A stretch of 28,420 nucleotides of DNA from a phage (GCA_014816205.1 GCA_014816205.1_4096.1), one strand, 5' to 3'. Shown: positions 12,820 to 26,897, counted from the first letter of the stretch. The notes: a model not told the origin generated them from the letters alone. Translations and numbers: made by a program.

Positions 12820-12882
12820 GATTTCTATCCTCAGTTAAGATATAAAACATTATACACTATCTTTCAGTACTGTCAATACTTT

Positions 12883-13140
12883 TTATCTCATAGATCTATG
12901 CCAACAATTACGCGGGGGACGTTTAAAAGTACTATCATGATCCTCCTGGCAAGTTATGCAGTACTTACATCCCTTAACGGCCTGGCGTCGTTTCTCAGGG
13001 ATTATATCGCCGCAGTCGAGGCAATGTATCAGTGATTCTATTTGTGCGTTAATTTGCTTTCTAGCGTGGTTAACGGCGGCCTGAATCACTGCGTTGATCT
13101 CGTCTTGTTCGGCCCCGTCTTTCGCGTATCCTACTGCCAT
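12883..13140 (-). CDS. TraR/DksA-family C4 zinc-finger protein (85 aa)
   Basis: ORF track; CLDCGDIIPEKRR...CKYCITCQ matches the CxxC-x17-CxxC TraR/DksA zinc-finger pattern. Confidence 0.55.
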   Translation of the reverse strand: MAVGYAKDGAEQDEINAVIQAAVNHARKQINAQIESLIHCLDCGDIIPEKRRQAVKGCKYCITCQEDHDSTFKRPPRNCWHRSMR

Positions 13141-13471
13141 TATTTTAACCTCATTATAAAAATACTATAGTACTGTAATGCGACAATAATATTACTTGTT
13201 CTTACTTTTTCCAATCCACATGATACCACATATTCATCCCCATATGTGCGAAACGATACACCATGAAAATTTTTATACACTTGCACTACTAATCATAACC
13301 TTTCGTCTAACCAACTGCATAGAATTATACTACTTTACGCAAATTGATCAAGTATTGATCAGATCATTTTTTGATCAATATTATACAGTTACATTTGTGC
13401 ACCCTATGGGTTAGTGACGTTCTCGTCTTGATGTAAGTATTATGCCAGTACTGGATGATATTGTCAATAGA

Positions 13472-13669
13472 TTATTTTAATTTTTTTCTGTCATTGATTA
13501 ATGCTTTCAGTACTATACTAATGATTTGCAATGATTCATCAATGACTATAAAATTATTCTCTTTCATTAGATGATAGTTACCATTGATTGTATATTCTAA
13601 GGAGTACTGTTTACGTTTAATTTTTGATAATGTTTCTATTTGTTTTTGTACTGATTTCATGCTAATCAT
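13472..13669 (-). CDS. hypothetical protein (65 aa)
   Basis: ORF track; AGGA 9 nt upstream. Confidence 0.55.
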   Translation of the reverse strand: MISMKSVQKQIETLSKIKRKQYSLEYTINGNYHLMKENNFIVIDESLQIISIVLKALINDRKKLK

Positions 13670-13774
13670 TGTTAAACGTCCTGTAACGCATTCTAACGAG
13701 ATAAACGGTTTAGTACTGGCATTGTATAGGGTAATGAATTAAAGTCCACCAGCGTTAACCAGTGGGCTATAATC

Positions 13775-13918
13775 TTACATCTTGCGGATAATCTTAACAG
13801 TATCTTTCACCGATTTACCGTCCTGTTGACATTGTTCGATCATCGCGTATTGTTCTGCGGTCAGATCCTCGCCAGTTTTTGCCAGTACTGCGTCGATGAA
13901 TGAATCCAGTGCGATCAT
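13775..13918 (-). CDS. small protein (47 aa), absent from ORF track
   Basis: Hand translation: MIALDSFIDAVLAKTGEDLTAEQYAMIEQCQQDGKSVKDTVKIIRKM; AGAGAGAAATAAA leader; promoter cassette 13919-14017. Confidence 0.45.
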   Translation of the reverse strand: MIALDSFIDAVLAKTGEDLTAEQYAMIEQCQQDGKSVKDTVKIIRKM

Positions 13919-14017
13919 TTTATTTCTCTCTTAGGTTAAGTTAACTACTGTTTATAAAACTTATTATACAGTACTATCAAACGTTGTCAATATCTTTAAT
14001 AGTACTGGTAATATATT

Positions 14018-14197
14018 TTAGCGGTAATCGTCGTATGCTTTATTCACCTGGCGAATGTAACTTTCAAAGGCTTCGTCTACCGTTTCATACTCCCGAACAT
14101 AATCACCATAGGAAACTACATACATACCTTTTTGATCTTCAAACGACATGATGATAGAATCCAGGCCGATGATTTCAGTTTTTGCGATGATAGCCAT
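14018..14197 (-). CDS. hypothetical protein (59 aa)
   Basis: ORF track 14018..14260 trimmed to ATG at 14197 with AAGGA upstream. Confidence 0.55.
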   Translation of the reverse strand: MAIIAKTEIIGLDSIIMSFEDQKGMYVVSYGDYVREYETVDEAFESYIRQVNKAYDDYR

Positions 14198-14289
14198 TTT
14201 TAATTCCTTAGTAGTGTAGTTGATAAAAGTTATTATGCCAGTACTATCAATCAGTGTCAATAGCTTTGATAGTACTGTGATAATATTTT

Positions 14290-14502
14290 TTAGTTAATAA
14301 TAGTCAGTGTAAAATTGTAATCACCACAGCGATATAGCACGTTATTCCCAAATGTTCCAACTAATCGCACATCACACAAAACTCCGGTTTTTTCTTTTAC
14401 CTCCTTGATACTTGTAACTCCTGTAATATCTTTATTAAAGTATTCATGATCTGAAAATAAAACTTGTTTTGCATTTTTTAATTTCGACCGGATATTAGCC
14501 AT
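14290..14502 (-). CDS. hypothetical protein (70 aa)
   Basis: ORF track; start context AAAATGGCT. Confidence 0.6.
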   Translation of the reverse strand: MANIRSKLKNAKQVLFSDHEYFNKDITGVTSIKEVKEKTGVLCDVRLVGTFGNNVLYRCGDYNFTLTIIN

Positions 14503-14595
14503 TTTGTTTTCTCTCTGTTAGTGGGGAGAACTATTCTCCCCTTCATGTAAAACATTATACAGTACTATAATCTATTGTCAAACTATTTTTTAATA
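14503..14595 (-). promoter_or_regulatory. PeSL-like promoter/hairpin cassette (consensus example)
   Basis: Minus strand TTGACA, 16 bp, TATAAT, GTTTTACATGAAG, hairpin GGGGAGAATAGTTCTCCCC, then AGAGAGAAAACAAAATG. Confidence 0.6.
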
Positions 14596-14937
14596 TTATT
14601 CGAAATCTTCTGGACCGGACTGATAATCATCTTCACCGTATGCACTTTCTAACCGCTCGCCAGTTTGATCATCAGTTAGTGAGTCATCCTCATAGTTCAC
14701 GTCTACGCCTACAATGTAAAACTGGCTATCGTCTGGATCATTGAAATTAATTTTCTGAATGTTTACAATAACTGTATTGATGCCCAGGACACAGCCATCA
14801 GCCGTTACAAAGTACTGATATTTTTCACAACCGCCTGAATTGAAACCGTAATTGATTTCGGCCCGACCATCATTTAAACGCAGTGCCTGAGCGATGATTT
14901 CGTTTTCAAAGTTAGATTGAGCAATTGAGATAGTCAT
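14596..14937 (-). CDS. hypothetical protein with acidic C-terminus (113 aa)
   Basis: ORF track; AAGGA upstream. Confidence 0.6.
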   Translation of the reverse strand: MTISIAQSNFENEIIAQALRLNDGRAEINYGFNSGGCEKYQYFVTADGCVLGINTVIVNIQKINFNDPDDSQFYIVGVDVNYEDDSLTDDQTGERLESAYGEDDYQSGPEDFE

Positions 14938-15071
14938 GATTCGTTTCCTTATTACCAGGGGAAACCGTTTCCCCTTTCGATGTAAAACATTATACGCCTA
15001 TTGAGATAGTTTGCAAGTACTTTTTATCAAATACTTTAAAATAGTTTTCAGTACTCAAACATTATACAATA

Positions 15072-15160
15072 GATACACTCCTGCACCCTGTGGGCTAGTG
15101 AGCTATCTCTCAATGAATATATAATAGCAAAATGGCTGACCGAAGTCAACCACTTTTTTC
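15072..15160. repeat. composite intergenic repeat, copy 4 (variant hairpin)
   Basis: tgcaccctgtgggctagtg 15082-15100; hairpin tggctgaccgaagtcaacca 15133-15152 plus tttttt; arm changes preserve pairing relative to other copies. Confidence 0.55.
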
Positions 15161-15162
15161 AT

Positions 15163-15297
15163 TTATTTTTTAGCTTTAAGTACTGCGGCCTTTCGTGTCA
15201 TTCCTTGTTTGATGTACTCCTTTACTTTCGCTTTTTTAGCGTTTACCTTGTCTGCTTTCGTTTTAGGAGTACTGTAAATTATACCGTTAGGATTCAT
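15163..15297 (-). CDS. small Lys-rich protein (44 aa), absent from ORF track
   Basis: Hand translation: MNPNGIIYSTPKTKADKVNAKKAKVKEYIKQGMTRKAAVLKAKK; start overlaps upstream stop. Confidence 0.45.
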   Translation of the reverse strand: MNPNGIIYSTPKTKADKVNAKKAKVKEYIKQGMTRKAAVLKAKK

Positions 15298-15387
15298 TTA
15301 AATCACCATAAAGAATAGATAGGTTACTAACAATGCCGCGATCAATGCACCGACCAGGGCCGAACTGTAATAAGCCAATGATTTCAT
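15298..15387 (-). CDS. small hydrophobic peptide (29 aa), absent from ORF track
   Basis: Hand translation: MKSLAYYSSALVGALIAALLVTYLFFMVI; ATGA overlap with 15384.. gene. Confidence 0.4.
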   Translation of the reverse strand: MKSLAYYSSALVGALIAALLVTYLFFMVI

Positions 15388-15536
15388 TTTTTAGCCTGAA
15401 AGTAATGTTTAATTTGTGCGGCGGTCAGTGCACAATTACGCAGGAAGTTTTCTGTATAACTGCGTCGAGTACTGAAAGAAAATTGACCTTTGCCGTTACC
15501 GATAGTAACATCAAACCGAGCATTATATTGTTTCAT
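15384..15536 (-). CDS. hypothetical protein (50 aa)
   Basis: ORF track 15384..15566 trimmed to ATG at 15536; track N-terminus is the translated leader hairpin. Confidence 0.5.
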   Translation of the reverse strand: MKQYNARFDVTIGNGKGQFSFSTRRSYTENFLRNCALTAAQIKHYFQAKK

Positions 15537-15617
15537 TTTGTTTCTCCTGATAGTGGGGAGAATCATTTCTCCCCTTGATGTAAAACATTATACAGTACTG
15601 AAAACTAATTGCAAGTA
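15537..15617 (-). promoter_or_regulatory. PeSL-like promoter/hairpin cassette
   Basis: RC of ttgcaa 15609-15614 and attata 15587-15592 (16-bp spacer); hairpin ggggagaatcatttctcccc 15555-15574. Confidence 0.6.
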
Positions 15618-15764
15618 TTATTTTTTAGATTTACGCAAACTTTCTACCATCTCAGGAGTAAGGCCCGGCGGGTAGGAAACCACTTCATCAACGAAACGTA
15701 AAGGGAATACCCCAGCGAAAGGTGAACATGCTTTCTTAGTATTACTCTTTTTTGATGCTTTCAT
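15618..15764 (-). CDS. small basic protein (48 aa), absent from ORF track
   Basis: Hand translation: MKASKKSNTKKACSPFAGVFPLRFVDEVVSYPPGLTPEMVESLRKSKK; AAGGA upstream. Confidence 0.45.
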   Translation of the reverse strand: MKASKKSNTKKACSPFAGVFPLRFVDEVVSYPPGLTPEMVESLRKSKK

Positions 15765-15833
15765 TTCATATTCCTTAATTAGTGGGGAGTACTATTTCTC
15801 CCCTTCATGTAAAACATTATACAGTACTGAAAA
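15765..15833 (-). promoter_or_regulatory. PeSL-like promoter/hairpin cassette
   Basis: ggggagtactatttctcccc hairpin; same promoter module as 15537-15617. Confidence 0.55.
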
Positions 15834-16043
15834 CTAATTGCAAGTACTATTTGAAAGTAAATGCTCATACGCTGCATTAACTACATTTTCAATAACCGAC
15901 TGTACAGAAAGATCCCCCACGTCCTGGCTATAGTAGAAATTGCTTACAGTGGTGTCATCGTATGCAAATACTTTACCAGGTACGGCATCAATCACATACA
16001 TATTAACCTTTAAGATGTCGATCTTATCCTGTACAGTAAGCAT
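15834..16043 (-). CDS. hypothetical protein (69 aa)
   Basis: ORF track 15834..16157 trimmed to ATG at 16043; the track N-terminus overlaps a better gene in another frame. Confidence 0.5.
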   Translation of the reverse strand: MLTVQDKIDILKVNMYVIDAVPGKVFAYDDTTVSNFYYSQDVGDLSVQSVIENVVNAAYEHLLSNSTCN

Positions 16044-16044
16044 A

Positions 16045-16215
16045 TTACGCCGCCTTATCAGTACTGGCAACCGGACGGATACGGGCCATTTCCTGGGCTT
16101 GTTCCACACTGTAACGCTCATAAAGGCGGCATTCTTCCGGTGTAGGAACAGCATCAATACGCTTCATCGGTTTAATGATTCTTTCGATCTCATTCAGTAC
16201 TTGATTAACGTTCAT
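16045..16215 (-). CDS. small protein (56 aa), absent from ORF track
   Basis: Hand translation: MNVNQVLNEIERIIKPMKRIDAVPTPEECRLYERYSVEQAQEMARIRPVASTDKAA; GGGGA 7 nt upstream. Confidence 0.45.
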   Translation of the reverse strand: MNVNQVLNEIERIIKPMKRIDAVPTPEECRLYERYSVEQAQEMARIRPVASTDKAA

Positions 16216-16266
16216 GGTATAATCCCCAATATAAGCGGCCTAAATCGACCACTAACGATGATTTGA

Positions 16267-16536
16267 TCAATAGGTGTATGGTTGACGCTCAAACAATGAT
16301 TGCACGTTGTACGCCCCGCTTATGGGCTTCGCTGGCAAATCAATTTTATATTGTTCACGCTTAAAGATAATAAAACGGCAATTGTTTTTAACATCAAAAT
16401 TGATTGAACGTTCCAGGAGTTTACCATCGTGCACAAATACAAGATAACCGCTTGGTACTTGTTTTGTAGAACTGGTTGCAACCATAGACCGACGAACATG
16501 TGTACCTGCATCGATTAAAGTACTGATATTTTTCAT
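16267..16536 (-). CDS. hypothetical protein (89 aa)
   Basis: ORF track; AAGAGGAAAG upstream. Confidence 0.6.
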   Translation of the reverse strand: MKNISTLIDAGTHVRRSMVATSSTKQVPSGYLVFVHDGKLLERSINFDVKNNCRFIIFKREQYKIDLPAKPISGAYNVQSLFERQPYTY

Positions 16537-16616
16537 TTTACTTTCCTCTTAAGTTGATTTAATTTCTTTCCCCTATGCAGACACTATATCAAAGTATCTG
16601 CATAAAGTAAAGCTAA

Positions 16617-16940
16617 TTAAAGATCTTTTTTGCGTTTAACATTCTGTACAGTACAATGCAACGGGATATTAAGATCATTGCACAAACGATAGAGGGAGGT
16701 TTCAACAGTATCAAGCCCGTCTACTGATTCCTTTAAGAGTGATACCGCCGTTTGTTGATATGCATCCTCATAGCCATAAGTAAATGATTCAACCGCCAGA
16801 TCATTCAAGCCGTTATCCAGTTCAACGCTTACATGACAAGAATGATAAGTATTGCCATATGAATCAGTCCAACGTTTACCGTCAACATTGATTGCATGGA
16901 TTGCAGCCAGGGAAACGGTGTTGATGATAGTTTTAGCCAT
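16617..16940 (-). CDS. hypothetical protein (107 aa); paralog of 10200..10523
   Basis: ORF track; shared RWTDSYGNTYHSC and FTYGY and KRKKD motifs. Confidence 0.6.
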   Translation of the reverse strand: MAKTIINTVSLAAIHAINVDGKRWTDSYGNTYHSCHVSVELDNGLNDLAVESFTYGYEDAYQQTAVSLLKESVDGLDTVETSLYRLCNDLNIPLHCTVQNVKRKKDL

Positions 16941-16968
16941 TTTAGTATTCCTTAAATTAATATGTGTC

Positions 16969-17042
16969 GTCTTGATAAAATCTATTATGCCAGTACTATC
17001 AAACTATGTCAATAGTACTGTGATAATATTTTTACTTACTTT
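16969..17042 (-). repeat. about 74-bp direct repeat, copy A (promoter module)
   Basis: Identical to 17263-17336; contains RC of TTGACA and CATAAT. Confidence 0.65.
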
Positions 17043-17244
17043 CTTTTGATGCTTTATATGTTGCCACTGCCATAACCACATCAGCACGAACAAAGTTTTT
17101 AACCGTGTCAGTGTAGTAATTGATTGCATCGTCTACATCTGTGAACGTCCGATACATACCGCACCAAGATACTTTATAACCTTCTTTCACTTGTTCAAGT
17201 TTAACCAGTGTTTTGTTTACTTTAATTTTAGTAATGATAGCCAT
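17032..17244 (-). CDS. hypothetical protein (70 aa)
   Basis: ORF track. Confidence 0.6.
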   Translation of the reverse strand: MAIITKIKVNKTLVKLEQVKEGYKVSWCGMYRTFTDVDDAINYYTDTVKNFVRADVVMAVATYKASKESK

Positions 17245-17262
17245 TATTGTTTCCTCTTAGTT

Positions 17263-17336
17263 GTCTTGATAAAATCTATTATGCCAGTACTATCAAACTA
17301 TGTCAATAGTACTGTGATAATATTTTTACTTACTTT
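17263..17336 (-). repeat. about 74-bp direct repeat, copy B
   Basis: Identical to 16969-17042; the two copies flank the 17032..17244 gene. Confidence 0.65.
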
Positions 17337-17469
17337 TTTCTTTCTTAATTGCTTCCACCTGGTCGGCCCATTCTTTACCCCATACTTGTAAATTATAATG
17401 GTACTGGCAAAGAGCAACGCCCCGCTTTAAACCAGTAATAGATTTTGTACCACATTGACAAGTTTTCAT
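17326..17469 (-). CDS. small Cys-rich protein (47 aa), possible zinc ribbon; absent from ORF track
   Basis: Hand translation: MKTCQCGTKSITGLKRGVALCQYHYNLQVWGKEWADQVEAIKKEKSK; preceded by cassette 17470-17554. Confidence 0.45.
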   Translation of the reverse strand: MKTCQCGTKSITGLKRGVALCQYHYNLQVWGKEWADQVEAIKKEKSK

Positions 17470-17554
17470 ATTAGTTTCCTTGTAGTGGGGAGAATCATTT
17501 CTCCCCTTGATGTAATGTATTATACTTTATTCGATTTACTTTGCAAGTACTTTT
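17470..17554 (-). promoter_or_regulatory. PeSL-like promoter/hairpin cassette
   Basis: ggggagaatcatttctcccc hairpin; RC of TATAAT and TTGCAA. Confidence 0.55.
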
Positions 17555-17782
17555 TTAATTTAATTCATCCAGGCAAAGGATACGTTCCACACCAAGATCC
17601 GTTAAACTAATGGTCGGTACTTGATAGGTTTCAATGTATGCTACACTTGCCCACTGACCGAACTCATTAACGGCCCAGGTATTCATTGCATTTTGCAATT
17701 CCACACCTTCCTTGTTGGTAATGACTGCAACTACTTGTTCGTTGCCAGTAGTACCAGATACGCGAGTAATGATAATAGCCAT
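17555..17782 (-). CDS. hypothetical protein (75 aa)
   Basis: ORF track. Confidence 0.6.
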   Translation of the reverse strand: MAIIITRVSGTTGNEQVVAVITNKEGVELQNAMNTWAVNEFGQWASVAYIETYQVPTISLTDLGVERILCLDELN

Positions 17783-18231
17783 TTTTTAATTCCTATTCAG
17801 TAGTTGATGTATGTATTATGTCAGTACTTAAAACTATTGTCAAACTATTTTTTAAAATTTATCAATGATTGATGCCGTTTCATTGATAGTCTTGCCGTGT
17901 TTTGCACACGCGATAACTGCTTTAAATTCCTTTGATGACCAATCTTTCTTGCTGCATACTGACATTACTTGTAACGTGAAACAATCCAGTTCATAAGTAT
18001 TCATCTTTAAATCCTCAGTTAGTTAAGGTGTCTCGCCTTGATGTAATTAATTATACGCTAATCTCTTAATCGTGCAAGTACTTTTTATTACTTTTTGTAA
18101 AATACTTTAAACACTCTCAATCGCTTTCTAACGTCCTTAACGCCACCAGCTAGGGCAATGTATCAGATAATCAGTTTAATGCGTTAGAATCGATTCTAGG
18201 CGGTGCTAGTGGACTGGAATACTATAGACAC

Positions 18232-18258
18232 AAAAAAGCCCACTGTTTAAGGTGGGCT
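18232..18258 (-). terminator. rho-independent terminator
   Basis: Hairpin agcccactgtttaaggtgggct followed on minus strand by TTTTTT; directly downstream of 18280.. gene. Confidence 0.65.
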
Positions 18259-18279
18259 AGTGATTCAGTACTTTAATTG

Positions 18280-18762
18280 TTATGCTTCAACTTTGCGATG
18301 AGCTTCGATCCATTCCTCGCGAGTCAATCCGCTTTCTTTGATAGCATCCAGTACTACCGCAATGCAGTTACCGCGTACAGGAATCATATGTTCTTCCCCG
18401 TTATCAAGTACTACAGTAACACGTTCTTGAATCCATTTTTTAGGTTTAGATTCTGGCTTATCTTCACCATACTTAACCGCCAGGGCTTTATGTGCCATTT
18501 CTACAACTACTTCCAGATCCAATCCAGACACCGCCGCCTGGATACTTTCGATTGTTGCTTGCAGTTCGGCTTCACGGGCTTTTTTCTGTTCTTCCAGTTC
18601 TGCTACCTTTTTGGCTTGCAGTTCTTTAGCTTCACTGTACGCAATGTTAAAATTGTTGCGTACTGCTTTCATGGTATCGTTATCCAGGTCAGCCAGCAAT
18701 TCAGCAGCAATAACAGTATCGTTTGAAATCAGTGCTTTCAGGAATGATTTTACATTAGCCAT
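18280..18762 (-). CDS. hypothetical protein (160 aa) with Glu/Lys/Ala-rich central segment
   Basis: ORF track 18280..18777 trimmed to ATG at 18762 with GAGGA 9 nt upstream. Confidence 0.6.
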   Translation of the reverse strand: MANVKSFLKALISNDTVIAAELLADLDNDTMKAVRNNFNIAYSEAKELQAKKVAELEEQKKAREAELQATIESIQAAVSGLDLEVVVEMAHKALAVKYGEDKPESKPKKWIQERVTVVLDNGEEHMIPVRGNCIAVVLDAIKESGLTREEWIEAHRKVEA

Positions 18763-18816
18763 TTTATAAATCCTCAATTAAAGTTTAGTTTACGTTTATT
18801 AGTGTATCAAAGTTTT

Positions 18817-18878
18817 ATCGACGTGTCCAGTTTTTCGTTCGACTTACTGGCGGTCTACTTAGTGCTCCCCGTCTTGAT
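18817..18878 (-). promoter_or_regulatory. structured leader element, copy 3 (long 5' UTR)
   Basis: Minus strand begins ACATCAAGACGGGGA and contains TAAGTAGACC, as in copies at 11226 and 22074; promoter TTGACA/TAGAAAT at 18886-18914. Confidence 0.4.
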
Positions 18879-18965
18879 GTAATACATTCTACGCCTTTTT
18901 GTGGTAATGTCAACTACTATTTTAAAACTATTTTTAAAGTATGCAGTACTACGATAATACAAAAA

Positions 18966-18992
18966 CAAAAAAGCCCACTGTATAAGTGGGCT
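18966..18992 (-). terminator. rho-independent terminator (duplicate of the 18232 module)
   Basis: Hairpin agcccactgtataagtgggct followed on minus strand by T-run; downstream of 19010.. gene. Confidence 0.65.
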
Positions 18993-19009
18993 AGTGATTC
19001 AGTACTATA

Positions 19010-19309
19010 TTATAAACAGTTAATTACTCCGGTGTGCGTTACTTTCTCAGTATCCATAACAGTGACCGAACCGCGTTTAGTACTTGCATCGTAATAAATT
19101 GTCGTGCTACCTTTTTCGTCTTCTTCATGGAACGGCCCGTTTTTAAATGCTTCTGGCTGGATCTCTAAATCCTTTAAAACAATCTCGCCAGTACTTTCAT
19201 TGGTCATCGCTACAGTGCACTGAATGAATTTTTCACTACTTACATCTAACGACGCATTAACAGCGAAAGAGGAAACAGATAAAGCCAGGGCGATGATTGC
19301 AATTTTCAT
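19010..19309 (-). CDS. secreted or periplasmic small protein with N-terminal signal peptide (99 aa)
   Basis: ORF track; MKIAIIALALSVSSFAVNA has a hydrophobic core and an AxA-type cleavage site. Confidence 0.6.
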   Translation of the reverse strand: MKIAIIALALSVSSFAVNASLDVSSEKFIQCTVAMTNESTGEIVLKDLEIQPEAFKNGPFHEEDEKGSTTIYYDASTKRGSVTVMDTEKVTHTGVINCL

Positions 19310-19393
19310 TTGATTATCCTTAGTTACCAGGGGGAACCGCTCCCCCTTGCGATGTAAAATATTATACAGTACTAAAAACTATTATCAAGTACT
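19310..19393 (-). promoter_or_regulatory. PeSL-like promoter/hairpin cassette
   Basis: gggggaaccgctccccc hairpin; RC of TATAAT. Confidence 0.5.
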
Positions 19394-19630
19394 TTATGAT
19401 TTTTTATAAAACATTTCGGCAGTGATATTTTTACCCGTTGGTTGTACTTTATCCAGAATTTTTTGATGCCCTGGCCGTCCAAATGAATATGATCCGTAAA
19501 CCGTAAACCAGTAGTTACCCTCAGTGTTTACATGTACAGCACAATAGGGAACGCCCCGCGATTCATCACTAGTAAAGTGTGATACCGTTCCCGTTACATT
19601 CGCAGACGTTGATTTGATTTGTTCGAGCAT
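19394..19630 (-). CDS. hypothetical protein (78 aa)
   Basis: ORF track. Confidence 0.6.
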   Translation of the reverse strand: MLEQIKSTSANVTGTVSHFTSDESRGVPYCAVHVNTEGNYWFTVYGSYSFGRPGHQKILDKVQPTGKNITAEMFYKKS

Positions 19631-19738
19631 TTTCTTATTCCTTAGTTACCAGGGGAACCGCTCCCCCTATGCAAAACATTATACGCGTTTAAAAACTAAT
19701 TGCAAGTATTTTAATAAAAAGTATTTGAAAAATAATTG

Positions 19739-19767
19739 TTGACAACTGCATCCAGTACTGGCATAAT
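19739..19767 (+). promoter_or_regulatory. plus-strand sigma70-like promoter
   Basis: ttgaca 19739-19744, 17-bp spacer, cataat 19762-19767; no plus-strand ORF follows. Confidence 0.45.
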
Positions 19768-19773
19768 TACTAC

Positions 19774-19880
19774 ATAAAGACGATACAGTCACTAACCCAC
19801 AGGGTGCATAGATCCGTCTATTAAATGATTCAGTACTGAAAAAGTAACGGGGAGTTATTATCTCCCCGCGTTGTTATTTG
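19774..19880 (+). ncRNA. candidate small non-coding RNA (about 100 nt)
   Basis: Runs from the 19739 promoter to hairpin cggggagttattatctccccg (19848-19868) plus U-rich tail; contains the 19-nt motif; only a 4-codon ORF. Confidence 0.3.
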
Positions 19881-20095
19881 GTAAGGTATAAACAGAAGTC
19901 ACCTTTATTTGCTACGCCGCCAGTGTAACGCGATGAATAGTTAGAAATATCTTGTACTTCTGCTATTACCAGTGTATCATCATTCATTTCGTCGCAGAAG
20001 CAAACGGCTGGATCTTTTACGCCGATATTGTCGGCATGTTCCCGCATAGATTTAACCAGTGCTTCCAGTTGAGAAAGAGTAGTGATATTAGCCAT
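19874..20095 (-). CDS. hypothetical protein (73 aa)
   Basis: ORF track 19874..20125 trimmed to ATG at 20095. Confidence 0.55.
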   Translation of the reverse strand: MANITTLSQLEALVKSMREHADNIGVKDPAVCFCDEMNDDTLVIAEVQDISNYSSRYTGGVANKGDFCLYLTK

Positions 20096-20179
20096 TGTAT
20101 TTTCCTCATTACCAGGGAGAACCATTTCTCCCCTCTATGTAAACTATTATACAGTACTAAAAACTAATTGCAAGTACTT
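20096..20179 (-). promoter_or_regulatory. PeSL-like promoter/hairpin cassette
   Basis: gggagaaccatttctccc hairpin; RC of TATAAT and TTGCAA. Confidence 0.5.
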
Positions 20180-20365
20180 TTAATTAAATTTTGTACCGTC
20201 CAGTAATGAAGCATTACGCATCATTCGCCCAGCACGATCCCAGCTAGTAGGATCGGGAATCCCTTGCAACTCGTTAGGGGAGATCTCAATCTTGATCCCT
20301 ACATTGATAACAGTCATTCCAGCCTTTGCAGCTTGCTCTCGGATAACCTCAGATAATGTTGTCAT
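20180..20365 (-). CDS. hypothetical protein (61 aa)
   Basis: ORF track 20180..20407 trimmed to ATG at 20365 with AGGAG 8 nt upstream; track M1 is a TTG. Confidence 0.55.
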   Translation of the reverse strand: MTTLSEVIREQAAKAGMTVINVGIKIEISPNELQGIPDPTSWDRAGRMMRNASLLDGTKFN

Positions 20366-20426
20366 GATTAAAGCTCCTGTATCGCTTATAATGTTTGTCA
20401 GTACCAATATAAAGTATTATACGCCT

Positions 20427-20639
20427 TTATTGCTTAGTGTCCAGTACTTTTAAAACATAATCAAAGACACCACGCACATCATTGATCATCGCCTGGCGGT
20501 TAGCAGGTAACGCATCAGGATCGCCACTATCCCAGGCATTAATAAAGCCACCTAAATCATGGAATACTTTATTCTGTAAGCCGATTAACTGTAATTCTTT
20601 TTCTTCAAGCTCTTTGATGCGGTCGATTAAATCACTCAT
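20427..20639 (-). CDS. hypothetical protein (70 aa)
   Basis: ORF track 20427..20675 trimmed to ATG at 20639 with GAGGATTATCTAATG context. Confidence 0.55.
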   Translation of the reverse strand: MSDLIDRIKELEEKELQLIGLQNKVFHDLGGFINAWDSGDPDALPANRQAMINDVRGVFDYVLKVLDTKQ

Positions 20640-20656
20640 TAGATAATCCTCAGTAC

Positions 20657-20941
20657 TTAACTGTAAGATCCGCAACGGTCGCAGTAGTGCCCGTCCTCGT
20701 CATCGTCAACGAATTGACCGACGAAATGATCTACTTTCGCTTTGAGGTTATTATAATCGTTTTCTACTTCCTTTAAACGTTCCTGGTAGTATTCCAGTGC
20801 CTTAAGATACGCCGCCTCAGTCGTTTTCTCACGCATAGCTAAATTCATTCCACGCGTTTCATCAAATAGCCAATAACCATCGGTGCATTGACTGATAGAT
20901 AATGACTTGCTTAGTACTGTATAGTTAATTACTTTACCCAT
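20657..20941 (-). CDS. hypothetical protein (94 aa)
   Basis: ORF track; same GAGGATTATCTAATG start context as 20427 gene; C-terminal HYCDRCG. Confidence 0.6.
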   Translation of the reverse strand: MGKVINYTVLSKSLSISQCTDGYWLFDETRGMNLAMREKTTEAAYLKALEYYQERLKEVENDYNNLKAKVDHFVGQFVDDDEDGHYCDRCGSYS

Positions 20942-21033
20942 TAGATAATCCTCAGTAAAGGCGGGAACTATTCCCCGCCTCGATATAAAGTATTATACGT
21001 TAATCTAACTACAATGCAAGTACTTTTTAAATT
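20942..21033 (-). promoter_or_regulatory. PeSL-like promoter/hairpin cassette
   Basis: gcgggaactattccccgc hairpin; RC of TATAAT and TTGCAT. Confidence 0.5.
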
Positions 21034-21300
21034 TTATAATCCTTTTACTGCATCAGGTGCGACTACGCCATCAATGTATTGAACATCGTTTTCCACTTCA
21101 CGGGCGGCATCATTCAGCAGATCAAAATTAAATTCCATTTCTTCCAGATCATCGAAATCAGGCTCATAACCATTAATTGTTGAATAAGTCCAAGTACCTT
21201 TTTCATAAGTTACGACACTTACATCAGGGAAGAAATCTTGCACATGATCCATCGCATCCCGAACCAATTGATGTGCAGTTGTGATATTTAAAGTTTTCAT
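21034..21300 (-). CDS. hypothetical acidic protein (88 aa)
   Basis: ORF track. Confidence 0.6.
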   Translation of the reverse strand: MKTLNITTAHQLVRDAMDHVQDFFPDVSVVTYEKGTWTYSTINGYEPDFDDLEEMEFNFDLLNDAAREVENDVQYIDGVVAPDAVKGL

Positions 21301-21393
21301 TTTGTTGCCCTTTTAGTGTGAGCGGGGAACCATTCCCCGCCTCGATATAAAGTATTATACGCTTTTAAACTTAGTTTGCAAGTACTTTTTGAA
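21301..21393 (-). promoter_or_regulatory. PeSL-like promoter/hairpin cassette
   Basis: gcggggaaccattccccgc hairpin; RC of TATAAT and TTGCAA. Confidence 0.5.
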
Positions 21394-22005
21394 TTAATAT
21401 TCGATTGATTCTACTACGCCATCAATAACATTGAATTGATACTCGTTACCCTCAATCAGTGCTACGATGTTTTCAGTAGTGAATTGATCCTCATATGCAT
21501 TCTCTAAATCACGGTACAACTTGCGTGACAATTCACGAATAGTTTCAGTGAGTAGTTCCTCAAGCTCATTAACTAACGTTTCTTGTTTTGCGGTTAAATC
21601 AGTGTAAGCCGATTCAATGTACCCGCTTACAGTGTTCTCATGCGAGTAGTGAGAGTGAGAACGCTTTACACTCATCGCCAAATCATCTTCATTCAGCAGG
21701 TGACGGATTGAGCGATACTTAGTTAATGCTCTTACCTTGCGTAAAAACTTCACTGCGTCAACGTGGTCAGTACTGATTGATGCACCGTCACCCTGGGACC
21801 AAAAACCACTGAATTGTATTTCAGCGTCATTAATGCCATATTCCGGTAGTACTGTTTCTTTATAGTATTCAATTTCACTTTCAGAAAAATAATCATCGTT
21901 TAAGTTTTTTTCACGTTCCCGAACCAGTTCGATAGCTGACGTTTTTTGTTCTGCGTTCAATTCAGAAAAAGCCATAACATAAGTAGTAGTAGTGATAGTT
22001 TTCAT
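21394..22005 (-). CDS. hypothetical protein (203 aa)
   Basis: ORF track; GAGGG 8 nt upstream; preceded by an unusually long multi-promoter leader. Confidence 0.65.
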   Translation of the reverse strand: MKTITTTTYVMAFSELNAEQKTSAIELVREREKNLNDDYFSESEIEYYKETVLPEYGINDAEIQFSGFWSQGDGASISTDHVDAVKFLRKVRALTKYRSIRHLLNEDDLAMSVKRSHSHYSHENTVSGYIESAYTDLTAKQETLVNELEELLTETIRELSRKLYRDLENAYEDQFTTENIVALIEGNEYQFNVIDGVVESIEY

Positions 22006-22073
22006 TTTGTAACCCTCATTCAGTAGTTGATGTAAGTATTATACGCTTTTAAAAACAATTGTCAAACTATTTT

Positions 22074-22147
22074 ATCAGGGGAGTTTTTCGTGTGCCTTAC
22101 TCCTGGGCTACTTAACGGGCAGTTACTTATTTCGTCCCCCGTCCTGA
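22074..22147 (-). promoter_or_regulatory. structured leader element, copy 2
   Basis: About 85% identical to 11226-11298, same closing stem ATCAGG/CCTGAT; again between two tandem promoters. Confidence 0.4.
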
Positions 22148-22230
22148 TGTAAAACATTATACGCCTTTAAACATAGTTTGCAAGTACTTTTTATCAAATA
22201 GTTTTCAGTACTGAATAGTAAAAAAAAGTA

Positions 22231-22259
22231 TTGACAGCACTATCCAGTACTGGTATAAT
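22231..22259 (+). promoter_or_regulatory. plus-strand sigma70-like promoter
   Basis: ttgaca 22231-22236, 17-bp spacer, tataat 22254-22259; two copies of the 19-nt motif downstream in opposite orientation. Confidence 0.45.
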
Positions 22260-22382
22260 ATACCCCATGACAACAGCTAACCCACCGGGTGCACAATTGT
22301 AACTGTACTAAACTACTTTTTCTATAGATACACTCCCGCACCCTATGGGCTACGGCTTATCTGCCAATGAATACATTATGCC

Positions 22383-22413
22383 AGTATTGACAAAATAAGT
22401 CAATACTGGCAAT
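22383..22413. other. perfect 12-bp-stem hairpin
   Basis: gccagtattgac aaaataa gtcaatactggc; stem contains TTGACT, which with CATAAT 17 bp away forms a minus-strand promoter-like site. Confidence 0.5.
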
Positions 22414-22433
22414 TGTAAAGATTTGTAAACTGA

Positions 22434-22664
22434 TTATACTGCAATCGCGTCCAGGCTATAATAATAATAAGTGCCGTATTGGTGTACTTTATTACCTTTT
22501 ATTTCAGTACTGAATGAATCCGAACGATTGGCATATGATGTTAATTTAAAGTACTTTGTTTTGCTGATACGTTGCCATACACCGCAGATCCGCTGTAAGT
22601 AAGTAGTTTTATTAGTGGTAGTATCTTTTACGGTTTTAACTTCAGTCATATACATATTGGTCAT
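22434..22664 (-). CDS. hypothetical protein (76 aa)
   Basis: ORF track; AAGGAG upstream. Confidence 0.6.
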   Translation of the reverse strand: MTNMYMTEVKTVKDTTTNKTTYLQRICGVWQRISKTKYFKLTSYANRSDSFSTEIKGNKVHQYGTYYYYSLDAIAV

Positions 22665-22750
22665 TTTTTTACTCCTTGCTTTAGTGGGGAACTATTCCCC
22701 ACCTGATATAAAGTATTATACGCGTTTAAACTTAGTTTGCAAGTACTTTT
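22665..22750 (-). promoter_or_regulatory. PeSL-like promoter/hairpin cassette
   Basis: ggggaactattcccc hairpin; RC of TATAAT and TTGCAA. Confidence 0.5.
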
Positions 22751-23014
22751 TTATAGTACTGCTATCTTTTTAGTACGGTACACGGTAACACGATTCCCCT
22801 TACGGTCGAGCTTTATTTCTACCACTCGACGCGATACACTAGCAGGACTTTTTAAAGCTGATAGCCAGTACTGTAATGATCTGGCTGTACTACGCTTTAC
22901 AATGGCCCAACGTTTACCACTTGCCGATCCCGCTCCCATATCTTTAAACGTTGCCCCGTCCTGGCGTGCGGCGATCCGAGCTTGTTCACGCGTCGCAAAA
23001 TACTTAATATTCAT
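22751..23014 (-). CDS. hypothetical protein (87 aa); short paralog of 9709..10104
   Basis: ORF track; shared FATREQARIAARQDGATFKDMG and DRKGNRVTVY motifs; AAGGG upstream. Confidence 0.6.
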   Translation of the reverse strand: MNIKYFATREQARIAARQDGATFKDMGAGSASGKRWAIVKRSTARSLQYWLSALKSPASVSRRVVEIKLDRKGNRVTVYRTKKIAVL

Positions 23015-23050
23015 GCTGTTACCCTTATCGTTGGTGTATGAATAAAATCC

Positions 23051-23073
23051 TATTATAAAGTACTATCACCGTG
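23051..23073. promoter_or_regulatory. palindromic operator-like site in promoter region
   Basis: Perfect palindrome agtactatcaccgtgatagtact just upstream of TATAAT; approximate coordinates. Confidence 0.35.
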
Positions 23074-23095
23074 ATAGTACTTTAAATCTATTCTA

Positions 23096-23335
23096 TTACA
23101 TTCCAACCATTGCAGCACGGATCGCCGTAGTGCTATACTTAAAGCCGTCCGGCGTTTTATCTTGTCCAGTCTGTTCTAAAAATAGCATCATATGACGGGC
23201 CGCATCATTGCGATTAGTGTTAGCGGCAATAAAGTCCTGGGCCAACCGGTATAATGATTCATCGTTATTAATCCAAAGGCTTACATTCCATTGAGTTTTG
23301 TTAGCGTGACCTAAGAACATTTTTGATTTAGCCAT
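23096..23335 (-). CDS. hypothetical protein (79 aa)
   Basis: ORF track. Confidence 0.6.
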   Translation of the reverse strand: MAKSKMFLGHANKTQWNVSLWINNDESLYRLAQDFIAANTNRNDAARHMMLFLEQTGQDKTPDGFKYSTTAIRAAMVGM

Positions 23336-23427
23336 TTTTTAATCCTCTTATATAGTGGGGAACTATTCCCCACCTGATGTAAAACATTATACGCTTTTAA
23401 ACTTAGTTTGCAAGTACTTTATTAAAC
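23336..23427 (-). promoter_or_regulatory. PeSL-like promoter/hairpin cassette
   Basis: ggggaactattcccc hairpin; near-duplicate of 22665-22750. Confidence 0.5.
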
Positions 23428-23790
23428 TTATTCGTAAATTTTGCCACTATCAGCCCATACCAGGAAACGAGGCATATTATCCCATGCATCTTGCTTTAAA
23501 TTTAAACCGTGTAATACTTCTGTACTTTCCATTCCTGGTACTGGTTTACTATACACCGCGAACAATTCACCCATATACTGATACGCCATCGTCAAATCAC
23601 TGGCGATCATCTTATGGATCATCGCATCAAGCATCACGGTAGCGGCGTATTGTTCACGCTTAAGCGGTAACATTGCAATAAGTTCCCGATAAGCTGAAAT
23701 GTGAATTTTTACCGTTTCTGCCGGAAGATCTTTCATCTCGTCGCGGAAGTTAACCAGGTTAGCAATAATTTTATTGATTTGAGTCGCCAT
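23428..23790 (-). CDS. hypothetical protein (120 aa)
   Basis: ORF track 23428..23847 trimmed to ATG at 23790; track N-terminus is the translated hairpin. Confidence 0.6.
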   Translation of the reverse strand: MATQINKIIANLVNFRDEMKDLPAETVKIHISAYRELIAMLPLKREQYAATVMLDAMIHKMIASDLTMAYQYMGELFAVYSKPVPGMESTEVLHGLNLKQDAWDNMPRFLVWADSGKIYE

Positions 23791-23880
23791 CGTTTTAATC
23801 TCTCTTAATGTGTAGCGGGAAGTGTTCCCGCTCTCGATGTAAAACATTATACGCTTTTAAACATAGTTTGCAAGTACTTT
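23791..23880 (-). promoter_or_regulatory. PeSL-like promoter/hairpin cassette
   Basis: gcgggaagtgttcccgc hairpin; RC of TATAAT and TTGCAA. Confidence 0.5.
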
Positions 23881-24128
23881 CTACATGTACTTTTAAAATA
23901 GTTTTCTTTCTATATAGGAGTACTATTATTCAGTACTACCAACAACCAGGGGAACTATCTTTCAGTACTGAATCAACCAAATCACTACTACACCCCATAA
24001 AACGGCCTCAGACGCATTCTAACGCATTAATACACCTAAGCTATACATTTGCACCGCCACCAGCTAACCAGGGCTTTACAGACCGTTTAAACGCGTTAAA
24101 TTATTTTCAATTATTTTGTTTTTAGCTA

Positions 24129-24156
24129 TTGACTCAGTACTAAAAAAGCGTATAAT
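24129..24156 (+). promoter_or_regulatory. plus-strand sigma70-like promoter
   Basis: ttgact 24129-24134, 16-bp spacer, tataat 24151-24156. Confidence 0.45.
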
Positions 24157-24343
24157 TACTACATAGACGCGAGAAAGCGGATACCCCAGGGGGTGCCGAG
24201 ATCCGTCCAAAATTCATAAAATTTAAAAAGAATACACTCCCGCACCCTAGCAGGTCAACGCACTTTCTCAGTACTGAATTATAGTACCATAGTACGGCCC
24301 AGGATAGCAAGCAAATTAATTAAAACTTTTTTCATCCAGGGTA

Positions 24344-24371
24344 TTGCTTTATTTTTCCAGTACTGTATAAT
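24344..24371 (+). promoter_or_regulatory. plus-strand sigma70-like promoter (extended -10)
   Basis: ttgctt 24344-24349, 16-bp spacer, tgtataat ending 24371. Confidence 0.45.
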
Positions 24372-24468
24372 AGTTCCATCAAGTCGAGAAAGACTCCAGC
24401 CCACCGGGTGCATAGTTACGCCCAAAATTCAGTACTGAAAAAATTTTTAAAAATATCCGTCCAGGCCG

Positions 24469-24497
24469 TTGACATTGCCCCCAGTTTATAAGATAAT
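24469..24497 (+). promoter_or_regulatory. plus-strand sigma70-like promoter
   Basis: ttgaca 24469-24474, 17-bp spacer, gataat 24492-24497; points into the repeat array. Confidence 0.4.
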
Positions 24498-24594
24498 GAT
24501 TCCAGATTCAGAAAAATCTAACTCCAGATACTGCGGGGAAACTATCCCCACGCGGTAGGGGAACTATTGGAAAAAACAAAATAAAATTTTGATT

Positions 24595-24697
24595 TAGCCG
24601 TCTATACTTCCAGACGTGTAACCATCTAGCCGTTTAGCCGTCCAAACGTCTAGCCATCCAGAAATCTAGCCGTTTAGCCGTCTAGATGGATAGCCAT
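24595..24697. repeat. iteron-like array of 7 TAGCC(G/A)T units
   Basis: TAGCC at 24595, 24627, 24635, 24651, 24667, 24675, 24691; spacings all multiples of 8 bp. Confidence 0.55.
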
Positions 24698-24896
24698 CTT
24701 TACTTCCAGACTTCTGGAGGGCTAGACATATCTACGTCCAAAATCCATCCAGGGTAACTACGCCCAAAATCCGTCAGTACTATACCATAGATCTATCTTT
24801 TGAAAGGGAGTATTCAGTACTGCCATCATAGCCCTCACTATGTTACCCTAGGAGGATGAAGACTATCATGTAGTACTGAATACTGTTAGAGGGAAC

Positions 24897-24916
24897 CCAC
24901 CAGCACAAGCTGGTGG
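24897..24916. other. hairpin whose two arms are the Chi octamer and its complement
   Basis: ccaccagc acaa gctggtgg, a perfect 8-bp stem. Confidence 0.6.
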
Positions 24917-25100
24917 CATAATGATTTAGATTAAAATCAGTACTGACACCATTCTGTTAATATCAGTACTGTTATTACGATTTTCATATGAGGTTCAAAA
25001 AGATGTACCACCACAGGAGGAACTATCTTTTCTGTACTGTCTCACGACAGGAGGTAGAGTAAATGAATTGTTCGCAGCAACTCATCACCCTATGTAGAAC

Positions 25101-25128: not shown

Positions 25129-25746
25129 TAGCTTTCTTTCATTATTCAGTACTGATATTCTTGAGAACTACCCGACTACAAACATCATTATATCCCACAA
25201 ATCATAAACGTCCCAACGTAAATTTCAACTTTCGAAGATCCAACTTTTATTTCATAGGTACTCCAAAATTTTTAGGATCGAGATTTAGGATGGAGTACTA
25301 ACCAACTTTTTGCTGGAGCCTCAAGGGGTAATGGAATTTTACCCCGAAGGGTAAAGGGGTAATTGAAATTAAGGTGAAAGTAATAATTCAGTACTAATCA
25401 TTGCGTGATTACTTTTGATTACATTTGATGTAATTTGCAAAATGGAAAAGGAGCTTGGAAACTACAAAGTACGGCAGACTTCCTCTGCCTACTTAGTGAC
25501 ATATCAGTACTGCTACGTTCTTGATTAAACGTGAACATTCCTGTACTCTAGTACTCACCACTGATCACTACAGTGATTATAAATGATTACTTAAATGTTT
25601 ATATATGATTACTTATGACTACCTATGATTACGGGGTTTAGCCTGGGGAGAATCCTAGTGATCGCATTTGTCCAGGCTGAATTTTAACAATTCGCCTGTA
25701 CATAAAGGTTGTTCACTAGGAGCTTCCCCTGTCTACTTGTGTTTAA

Positions 25747-26141: not shown

Positions 26142-26327
26142 TTAGTGTCTGTATATAAGTAATAGTAAGAATACGTACTGCACATCTTCATCTTTAGTAT
26201 TGAGTACTGTACGTATTGCGTCATTAAACAAGAATATAGTACTTGGGTCATGAAAATTTAAAGGGGTTCTGGGTACGGCATGTTTGTAGTTCCCGTTAAC
26301 AAATTGTGTGTAGTATTCTCTATGCAT
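26142..26327 (-). CDS. small protein, paralog family 2
   Basis: ORF track; MHREYYTQFV ... LLLLIYRH. Confidence 0.5.
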   Translation of the reverse strand: MHREYYTQFVNGNYKHAVPRTPLNFHDPSTIFLFNDAIRTVLNTKDEDVQYVFLLLLIYRH

Positions 26328-26328
26328 A

Positions 26329-26514
26329 TTAGTACCTATATATTAGGGCGAGAATGTAGTACAATTCATATGGAATGTAATTTGGGGTGATCGCACACTG
26401 TGTATGGTAAATGAATTGTTCGGTATTTTTCTTATCCTTGATATCTATTGGGATTTGTGGTATAAGCATTTGGGAGTTTAGATCGAGATGGCTTAAGTAG
26501 AATTCTTTATGCAT
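26329..26514 (-). CDS. small protein, paralog family 2
   Basis: ORF track; MHKEFYLSHL ... LALIYRY. Confidence 0.5.
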   Translation of the reverse strand: MHKEFYLSHLDLNSQMLIPQIPIDIKDKKNTEQFIYHTQCAITPNYIPYELYYILALIYRY

Positions 26515-26523
26515 ATTGTTCTC

Positions 26524-26712: not shown

Positions 26713-26713
26713 G

Positions 26714-26896: not shown

Positions 26897-26897
26897 A

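Follow-up and report, generated by a model that had tools for sequence, protein, structure and literature searches.

A conserved multi-copy RNA element behind sigma70-type promoters in the terminal repeat of RaK2-like giant phages: a candidate protein-recognised module

The 28,420-nt stretch of phage DNA analysed here (GCA_014816205.1, hereafter the window) contains, at 19739–19880 on the plus strand, one copy of a multi-copy, strongly conserved RNA element found in the terminal repeat of RaK2-like giant phages. The element consists, in this order, of a consensus promoter, a short covarying hairpin, the invariant RCCC-N3-GGGUGC, the stretch U(G/C)YRUCYAU and AGTACT. We read the locus as a conserved, multi-copy non-coding transcription unit, specific to the RaK2-like direct terminal repeat, whose RNA may be a module recognised by a protein. 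This reading as a whole, drawn from sequence, has in our judgement about an even chance of being right, and any specific partner is suggested loosely, with less confidence than that.

Location of the unit within the terminal repeat

The window belongs to an Asteriusvirus (121Q/PBECO4-like) jumbo coliphage and is 95–98% identical to phages of this group such as SP27, slurp01, G17 and PBECO4. The region of vB_Ec-M-J that matches it lies within the annotated 21.5-kb direct terminal repeat of that phage. Position 1 of both vB_Ec-M-J and fEgEco12, whose ends have been confirmed by restriction digests (PMC13070987), maps to window position 25493, the physical left terminus. The window therefore spans the junction between the repeat and the sequence abutting it, and the plus-strand unit at 19739 lies ~5.7 kb inside the ~21-kb direct terminal repeat. 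All genes are on the minus strand of the window and directed away from the physical end, the plus strand being directed towards it. Small orphan genes fill the region, and every one of them carries a repeated promoter (TTGCAA-N16-TATAAT) together with a hairpin in its 5' UTR and a ribosome-binding site (repeat families D1–D7).

Architecture of the 19739–19880 unit

The following features make up the unit:

19739–19767, plus strand: sigma70-type promoter with extended −10, 11/12 match (−35 TTGACA at 19739–19744, 17-nt spacer, TG at 19759–19760, −10 CATAAT at 19762–19767)
19774–~19880, plus strand: predicted primary transcript of ~103–107 nt, from promoter and terminator geometry
19779–19790, plus strand: 5' hairpin GAC-GATACA-GTC with a 3-bp stem and an A-rich hexaloop, the variable, covarying arm of the module
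19792–19821, plus strand: invariant core CTAA-CCC-ACA-GGGTGC followed by ATAGATCCGTCTAT, with a mini-hairpin from A19795 to T19805
19831–19838, plus strand: CAGTACTG, the 3' boundary of the module
19848–19868, with tail to 19880, both strands: bidirectional terminator hairpin CGGGGAG-TTATTAT-CTCCCCG (stems 19848–19854 and 19862–19868, loop TTATTAT)

An earlier note on this DNA had proposed a small RNA transcribed from this promoter to this hairpin. The promoter is indeed present, and its 17-nt spacer contains CAGTACTG (19753–19760). It stands back to back with the promoter of a minus-strand gene (−35 at 19705–19700), and an A/T-rich upstream region is common to the two. Promoters matching at 11/12 or better are rare in shuffled sequence (0.77 ± 0.86 per strand), and the plus strand of the window has five, a 6-fold enrichment; three of these five precede a copy of the RNA element. 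The predicted +1 is A19774, 7 nt past the −10, and the predicted 3' end falls in the tail beyond the hairpin, near 19878. Folding of the predicted 19774–19880 transcript gave a z-score of only −1.84.

The 19-nt motif CTAACCCACAGGGTGCATA (19792–19810), which the note had placed in the transcript, lies within it. Allowing up to 3 mismatches, 8 occurrences were counted where 0.01 would be expected. The sole ATG ORF inside the predicted transcript is, as had been claimed, one of 4 codons (ATG ATT CAG TAC TGA, 19825–19839), and it is absent from the paralogues. ORFs of at least 20 aa overlap the promoter region only, and ARAGORN detected no tRNA or tmRNA genes in the window. The hairpin also lies where it had been described, with a caveat as to its U-rich tail: the plus-strand tail after the hairpin, CGTTGTTATTT, overlaps the stop codon of the gene at 19874–20125 and has only 4 U within its first 8 nt (CGUUGUUAUUU). 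The T-run is better on the minus strand (TACTTTTTCA), and the annotation of phage G17 marks the hairpin as a minus-strand terminator. It is primarily the terminator of the converging minus-strand gene 19874–20125.

Conservation of the unit among relatives

Orthologues of the 19739 unit were aligned from 9 phages, ranging from E. coli to Klebsiella phages and including 121Q. In 9/9 the −35 is invariant, the −10 is CATAAT or TATAAT and the 17-nt spacing is unchanged, with a different spacer sequence in the Klebsiella phages. Within this alignment the 5' stem changes from GAC/GTC to AGC/GCT, and the terminator stem carries compensatory substitutions in 121Q, SHEFM2K, PBECO4 and the Klebsiella phages. 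The plus-strand U-tract is good in the Klebsiella phage orthologues and poor in the E. coli phages. When the window is compared with K64-1 or Muenster, only 19729–19867 (73.6% over 144 nt) and ordinary gene promoters align, and no nucleotide or tblastx match was found for the flanking genes beyond these. Between E. coli and Klebsiella phages, the 19739 unit stands out as an island of conservation. Together with the conserved hexamers and spacing and the compensatory stems, this indicates that the promoter-driven non-coding unit anticipated by the earlier note is under selection.

A family of copies in RaK2-like terminal repeats

Using a covariance model built from 30 copies, we detected 72 matches, located in the window, the Klebsiella phages RaK2 and Muenster, the Pectobacterium phage CBB, the Cronobacter phage GAP32, the Erwinia phage Hallingskeid, fENko-Kae01 and two jumbo-phage contigs of 359,777 and 366,160 bp. 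The hosts of the RaK2-like phages that carry the element comprise Escherichia, Klebsiella, Salmonella, Erwinia, Cronobacter and Pectobacterium. When 2.9 million viral contigs were scanned with a strict pattern, matches came only from genomes of 346–378 kb belonging to the RaK2-like clade, and in RaK2 all of them lie within one 19-kb stretch. In Muenster, fENko-Kae01, Munch and the window, every copy is inside the terminal repeat, with none in the 3–20 kb of flanking unique sequence sampled. Each terminal repeat carries about ten copies (8–12). In the repeat analysis, the promoter and the first ~50 transcribed bases recur on both strands (repeats D18, D19, I1, I4 and I5). The 11 copies of the window are as follows:

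19739–19880, plus strand: solo antisense copy
22231–22310, plus strand: 12/12 promoter 22231–22259, short-form element 22258–22310; 27.2 bits
22320–22403, minus strand: promoter 22403–22375 (TTGACT-17-CATAAT), element 22374–22320; 52.6 bits
24129–24214, plus strand: promoter 24129–24156, element 24159–24214, facing a degenerate minus-strand copy
~24221–24256, minus strand: degenerate copy
24343–24436, plus strand: promoter of 9/12 with weak −35 and −10 TATAAT at 24366–24371, element 24374–24429, then CAGTACTG
15065–15156, minus strand: co-directional copy, element 15120–15065, 60.4 bits; the gene's own promoter follows at 15016–14989
13381–13467, minus strand: co-directional copy, promoter 13467–13439, element 13436–13381
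11374–11460, minus strand: co-directional short-form copy without 5' stem; terminator-like hairpin 11460–11433 overlaps the −35
8101–8185, minus strand: co-directional copy, promoter 8185–8157, element 8156–8101; 60.7 bits
5839–5925, minus strand: co-directional short-form copy; terminator-like hairpin 5925–5898 overlaps the −35

The copy at 13381–13467 is the closest paralogue of the 19739 unit (86 nt, 79% complementary to 19728–19813; repeat I1).

Conserved sequence and structure of the transcribed module

In the four genomes from which 41 copies were collected, all 41 have a sigma70 promoter at a fixed distance, with scores of 8–12 out of 12 and a spacer of mostly 17 nt, and the family shares a conserved CA start 7 nt after the −10. 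The 5' hairpin has 3–5 bp and an A-rich loop of 4–9 nt (AGAUAA, AGAACAA, GAGAAA, GCGAAA, GAUACA). It is followed by a YUAR linker (4–5 nt) and the near-invariant CCC-AYA-GGGUGC, whose flanking R and U can close a 4-bp mini-hairpin. Past GGGUGC come five mostly purine bases and U(G/C)YRUCYAU, and AGTAC(T) begins 10–32 nt after GGGTGC in 49/69 distinct copies, compared with a background of ~15%.

Covariation in the 5' hairpin amounts to 0.292, against 0.137 ± 0.011 after shuffling (0/500) and at most 0.075 for slid partners, and four of four pairs change on both sides. The alignment had been fitted to the model, so the test was redone alignment-free: of 58 unique sequences, 41 have a Watson–Crick stem of at least 3 bp at the expected place, whereas shuffling gave 19.9 ± 3.4 and, in 1000 trials, never more than 31; the 41 sequences use 23 distinct stems. 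That the geometry persists while the stem sequences differ favours pairing of nucleic acid over an operator in duplex DNA. The remaining ~30% of copies are short forms that lack the 5' stem. In the core, none of the 69 distinct copies departs from CC, GGTG and one G, and the CCC/GGG stem is nearly as constant, with one compensatory CCU/AGG in CBB. The core loop varies in sequence and measures 3 nt in 68/69 aligned copies, while CCC, GGGUGC and the R:U closing pair stay fixed, a pattern consistent with recognition of a hairpin by a protein. Energy alone does not predict these weak stems, yet they are conserved.

Several further candidate features were examined and set aside. Pairing of the A-rich 5' segment with UGUAUCU, as a pseudoknot or long-range helix, reached −4.58 kcal/mol, compared with −4.41 for permuted partners (p ~0.18). 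A third hairpin, AUAGA-UCCG-UCUAU, forms in the 19739 copy and, judged by eye, is not kept in the paralogues. A conserved mini-ORF, NTG TAT CTA TAG, was rejected because its stop codon is not conserved and a purine-rich stretch abuts the start. The pause-like G-10/Y-1/G+1 pattern (GG-N8-TG) is present in most copies, but its consensus is too loose to count as evidence. RfaH recognises the ops consensus GGCGGTAGnnTG on the non-template strand; the stretch GGTGCGGAGGTG in the element matches it at 6/12 positions, without G5 and T6.

Genomic context of the copies

The earlier note had presented transcription against the prevailing direction as a property of such units. As a property of the element this is not borne out, given that 7 of the 11 window copies, and ~60% of the 41 copies in four genomes, point with the genes. 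In the co-directional window copies (5839, 8101, 11374, 13381 and 15065), the −35 is usually inside the terminator-like hairpin of the upstream gene, and the next gene's own promoter follows 60–75 nt further on in all five. The hairpins at 5898–5925, 11433–11460 and 15129–15156 contain the −35 TTGACT of the next promoter, so that signals for termination and re-initiation overlap. A terminator of their own is no part of these copies: 24 of 25 co-directional copies lack a terminator-like hairpin, the exception being an AT-rich palindrome, and they run into the next promoter. The terminator that the note had included in the unit must consequently be left out of the conserved module.

Solo antisense copies comprise the 19739 unit, 12042 and 19019 in Muenster, 3304 and 10997 in fENko-Kae01, and 10213 and 17427 in Hallingskeid. 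About 21 nt past the module, they have a GC hairpin that doubles as the terminator of the converging gene, and a T-rich tail after this hairpin is also present in the solo antisense copies of Muenster and fENko-Kae01.

A third class is formed by convergent pairs, represented in the window by 22258 (plus) with 22374 (minus) and 24159 (plus) with ~24256 (minus), 1–3 kb from the physical end, with analogous pairs in other phages. The 22231 promoter, which had been likened to the 19739 arrangement, does belong to the same family, but it is one half of such a pair. Its supposed terminator, the palindrome at 22383–22413 (12-bp stem), carries the −35 of the opposing minus-strand promoter 22403–22375 and has no U-tail. 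The 22231 RNA is predicted to form a long imperfect hairpin (z = −7.07) and would be antisense to its partner. RNAs of the two convergent pairs fold into a long hairpin (z = −7.1 and −4.3) because each reads through the complement of its partner.

At the DNA level, the convergent pairs are ~150-bp imperfect palindromes centred on GAATGATTATCATTC-like sequences (968–1123 in record L004; 19314–19461 and 19851–20006 in L006; 21555–21714 and 22677–22826 in L003). In Muenster and fENko-Kae01 their distance from the left end of the genome is 0.9–2.6 kb, with a further fENko-Kae01 pair at ~7.3 kb. In Hallingskeid they are found at ~19–20 kb of a record whose physical ends are not annotated.

A putative protein-recognised 5' RNA module

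Going beyond the promoter, structure, covariation, conservation, copy number and context described above, we infer how the element might be transcribed, where its RNA might end, and what protein binding and downstream effect might follow. Host sigma70 RNA polymerase would start at A19774, and the first ~55 nt of the RNA would constitute the functional module: a weak hairpin of 3–5 bp with an A-rich, GNRA-like loop, a linker of 4–5 nt, the RCCC-N3-GGGU mini-hairpin with the following GC, and U(G/C)YRUCYAU. In the 19739 copy, the RNA would end at the bidirectional terminator common to the converging gene, giving a length of ~105 nt. In the earliest RNAs transcribed from the incoming DNA, the module may be recognised by a protein. 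It could then act either in cis on the very polymerase transcribing it, as nut or put sites do, or by offering an RNA-binding factor of host or phage an abundant decoy or handle.

The obligatory promoter, the variation of stems that preserves pairing and the tolerance of the loop point to recognition of nascent RNA rather than of duplex DNA. Since the terminator is dispensable for the family, the function would reside in the 5' part. Weak stems, invariant bases that are partly paired and a dispensable terminator fit a protein-bound 5' module better than an sRNA built of seed and terminator, which favours a nut/put-like or decoy-like RNA.

The lambda nut (boxA/boxB) and HK022 put sites are likewise short RNA elements located right after early promoters of the host polymerase, on both strands, with small hairpins, covarying stems and GNRA-like loops; nut and put are recognised as nascent RNA, as would be the case for the element. 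Its likeness to boxB (a covarying stem of 3–5 bp, GA..A loops and a distance of 5–8 nt from +1) is a resemblance by eye only. Unlike nut, the element lacks a boxA consensus (CGCUCUUA / UGCUCUUUA), the consensus of 69 copies being YUAR-CCC-AYA-GGGUGC, and it is present in 8–12 copies rather than two. A scan of the window for an N-like arginine-rich protein gave no convincing ORF, nor was a partner protein found, and the ten neighbouring ORFs had only sub-threshold Pfam matches. Some copies, in a further departure from nut and put, meet a terminator at once with nothing beyond it. For an antiterminator acting in cis, it is awkward that the 19739 copy is followed by a conserved terminator 45 nt on, with no genes beyond, and that the co-directional copies come after terminators and are followed by a second promoter.

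In favour of a protein-recognised module we also count the distantly related jumbo phage PA5oct, in whose long terminal repeat RNA-seq revealed two highly expressed non-coding RNAs without ORFs (PMC7318152). These RNAs, ncRNA001 and ncRNA002, account for 2–5% of phage reads, measure 236 and 451 nt and were reported without known promoters (PMC7318152). They share no sequence or motif with the element, which counts against the reading, as does the lack of a 5' stem in the short forms.

We rate the element as a phage early-promoter cassette carrying its own conserved structured RNA, with no Rfam family and no described counterpart in the literature searched. No match to Rfam 15 was found in the whole window at gathering thresholds, and the best sub-threshold scores for 19700–19900 and 22180–22440 were at most 20 bits, against cut-offs of 38–167. 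The literature on RaK2, 121Q, PBECO4, CBB, G17, fEgEco12 and Asteriusvirus makes no mention of the element, and no transcriptome was found.

The RNA element is more conserved than any neighbouring protein and always coupled to a consensus host promoter, and it offers a concrete handle on how 350-kb phages without an early RNA polymerase of their own take over the host from their terminal repeats. It supplies probes for Northern blotting (CUAACCCACAGGGUGC) and RACE, a 55-nt bait for partner proteins and a covariance model for annotating the clade. Should the element turn out to modify polymerase or to serve as an RNA decoy, the handful of known RNA signals of this type (nut, put) would gain a new member; should it be only a cassette of promoter and terminator, the PeSL concept would reach from T4-type to jumbo phages. 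As a bolder and decidedly tentative proposal, the 8–12 copies in RaK2-like terminal repeats might represent a new class of structured RNA, transcribed from host promoters in the first minutes of infection and reprogramming the host. This could occur through polymerase modification (put/nut-like antitermination or pause-loading, a new RNA signal) or titration of a defence or RNA-binding factor of the host. Antisense and convergent copies would in that case be deliberate sources of free RNA or dsRNA.

Alternative explanations

The main rival, possible though on balance rather unlikely, is a geneless cassette resembling the PeSLs of T4-type phages, of which RaK2-like phages are distant relatives. 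The act of transcription would matter here and the RNA would be a by-product: head-on or convergent firing would insulate early units by polymerase collision, the repeats would be recombination linkers, and conservation of the transcribed bases would reflect a role in promoter escape or in stabilising the 5' end. PeSLs are repeated intergenic cassettes among small orphan early genes (Arbiol, Comeau and Krisch 2010, PMC2839356), and the region studied here is similarly rich in small orphan genes with repeated promoter cassettes. Both PeSLs and the element have a strong sigma70-type promoter, an AT-rich upstream region and a GC stem-loop terminator that may overlap the −35. This overlap, which defines one described PeSL subclass (PMC2839356), is seen in co-directional copies at 5925–5898, 11460–11433 and 15156–15129, while the hairpin of the 19739 unit is located ~75 nt downstream instead. 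Two features of placement would also suit such a cassette: every solo antisense copy is directed at the upstream gene's terminator, and the convergent pairs lie near the genome end. PeSLs, however, end in a Shine–Dalgarno sequence and start codon and have no conserved transcribed RNA, whereas the element continues into a ~55-nt non-coding module and then a second promoter or terminator, with no ORF following. It also differs from PeSLs in having copies on both strands and in convergent pairs. Its subtypes are conserved across genera, being near-identical in phages of different host genera, and so are not recently shuffled linkers. The PeSL-like explanation accounts for the placement of the copies, but it leaves unexplained the invariant 12-nt motif and the covarying hairpin, which are kept across phage genera.

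Lower in probability, and less likely than a protein-recognised module, is antisense pairing, either by a classical trans-acting sRNA of ~105 nt with a conserved seed, mRNA targets in host or phage and possibly Hfq, or by an OOP-like RNA that pairs with the converging mRNA at its 3' end and terminator. The strong promoter of its own, the terminator hairpin and the lack of any ORF beyond 4 codons all suit an sRNA, as do the GC hairpins ~21 nt past the solo antisense copies of Muenster, fENko-Kae01 and Hallingskeid and the similarity of the A-rich loops to ARN motifs. Compared with Hfq-type sRNAs, though, the conserved unit lacks a long uninterrupted U-tail, the plus-strand tail being poor in the E. 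coli phages, and most copies have no terminator and run with the genes. A seed of the sRNA type is hard to locate: the conserved part consists of the 5' hairpin and the invariant motif, the most conserved bases are those of the mini-hairpin, and no obvious single-stranded seed is left. Within the window, the only conserved complements are opposite-strand copies of the element, and no pairing of the module's 5' part with its 3' part is supported. With lambda OOP and other short phage antisense RNAs, the unit shares a predicted length of ~100 nt, its own promoter and an antisense overlap with the 3' end and terminator of an opposing gene, here 19874–20125. In contrast to OOP, the overlap is limited to the shared terminator, and the conserved part lies outside it and is common to copies that are antisense to nothing.

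We consider it improbable that the element is a DNA-level cis site of the terminal repeat, whether an R-loop or primer origin of the T4 kind (promoter, G-rich non-template stretch and AT-rich downstream region) or a site for injection, packaging or roadblock like the T5 iss. Its restriction to the terminal repeat in many copies, the G-rich runs of the GGGTGCGGAGGTG type followed by very AT-rich DNA, and the ~150-bp palindromes of the convergent pairs 1–3 kb from the physical end agree with a site of this sort. The untranslated part of the T5 terminal repeat, too, has repeats and palindromes (Davison, 10.1101/866236). The T5 iss region is, however, a single cluster defined by DnaA boxes and acting at the DNA level, whereas copies of the element are dispersed between genes with a promoter each. 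DnaA boxes (TTWTNCACA) are not enriched in the window (4 versus 4.6 expected), and none is at an element. Stems that differ in sequence and keep their pairing speak against duplex recognition, the obligatory promoter at its fixed distance implies a role for the RNA or the transcribing complex, and the convergent orientation is ill suited to leading-strand priming.

That a promoter-like sequence and a terminator arose by chance in AT-rich phage DNA, with no plus-strand function, is scarcely credible and already contradicted by the comparative data: although 52.8 promoter-like matches are expected at the 9/12 level in 14 kb, 11/12 matches with an extended −10 are rare (0.77 per strand), phages of different genera retain the promoter, and the transcribed motif is found 72 times behind similar promoters.

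Other features of the terminal repeat

The gene-start cassette is present in at least 17 copies on the minus strand at 14500–23900, each consisting of an AT-rich upstream region, TTGCAA-N16-TATAAT, ACATCA, a GC hairpin (e.g. GGTGGGGAATAGTTCCCCAC) and a ribosome-binding site. The sequence of these hairpins differs from copy to copy, and PeSL cassettes of T4-type phages are similar.

Positions 4574–28371 of the window contain 156 occurrences of the AGTACT palindrome (9.4 expected) and 37 of CAGTACTG (0.3 expected). AGTACT is absent from 1–4573, which gives a sharp boundary close to the inner limit of the terminal repeat; at the other side, the enrichment extends beyond the physical end at 25493. 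Copies of AGTACT are found within promoter spacers, immediately ahead of the −10, as well as abutting the −35 on its upstream side (AAAGTACTTGCAA) and following every RNA element, and the motif could be a protein-binding or punctuation site.

Chi sites (GCTGGTGG) number 11 in 5803–24916 of the window, against 0.31 expected, and 10 of them are on the minus strand. The sole plus-strand Chi (24909–24916) is back to back with a minus-strand one (24897–24904), ~580 bp from the physical left end, and the orientation of the sites would halt RecBCD coming in from either genome end. Near these paired sites and the genome end, a hairpin with a 14-bp stem at 24938–24971 is made of two CAGTACTG copies, and the terminal bases themselves (25473–25493) fold into a small hairpin, GGCAGAGGAAGTCTGCC. 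At 24593–24728, downstream of a plus-strand 11/12 promoter at 24469–24497, ~17 degenerate units of 8 nt (TCTAGCCG / TTTAGCCG / TCCAAACG and others) are arrayed in tandem. The array lies within a gene-free stretch of ~1.5 kb beside the genome end and has the appearance of an iteron or packaging site.

A minus-strand ORF of 213 aa at 8204–8845 has weak, sub-threshold matches to protein kinases (Pfam E = 0.003), and the terminal repeats of Muenster, Munch and fENko-Kae01 carry annotated putative protein kinases. Just outside the terminal repeat, at 26300–27300, there are several tandem paralogous ORFs of ~60 aa with repeated upstream sequences (D9, D14–D16).
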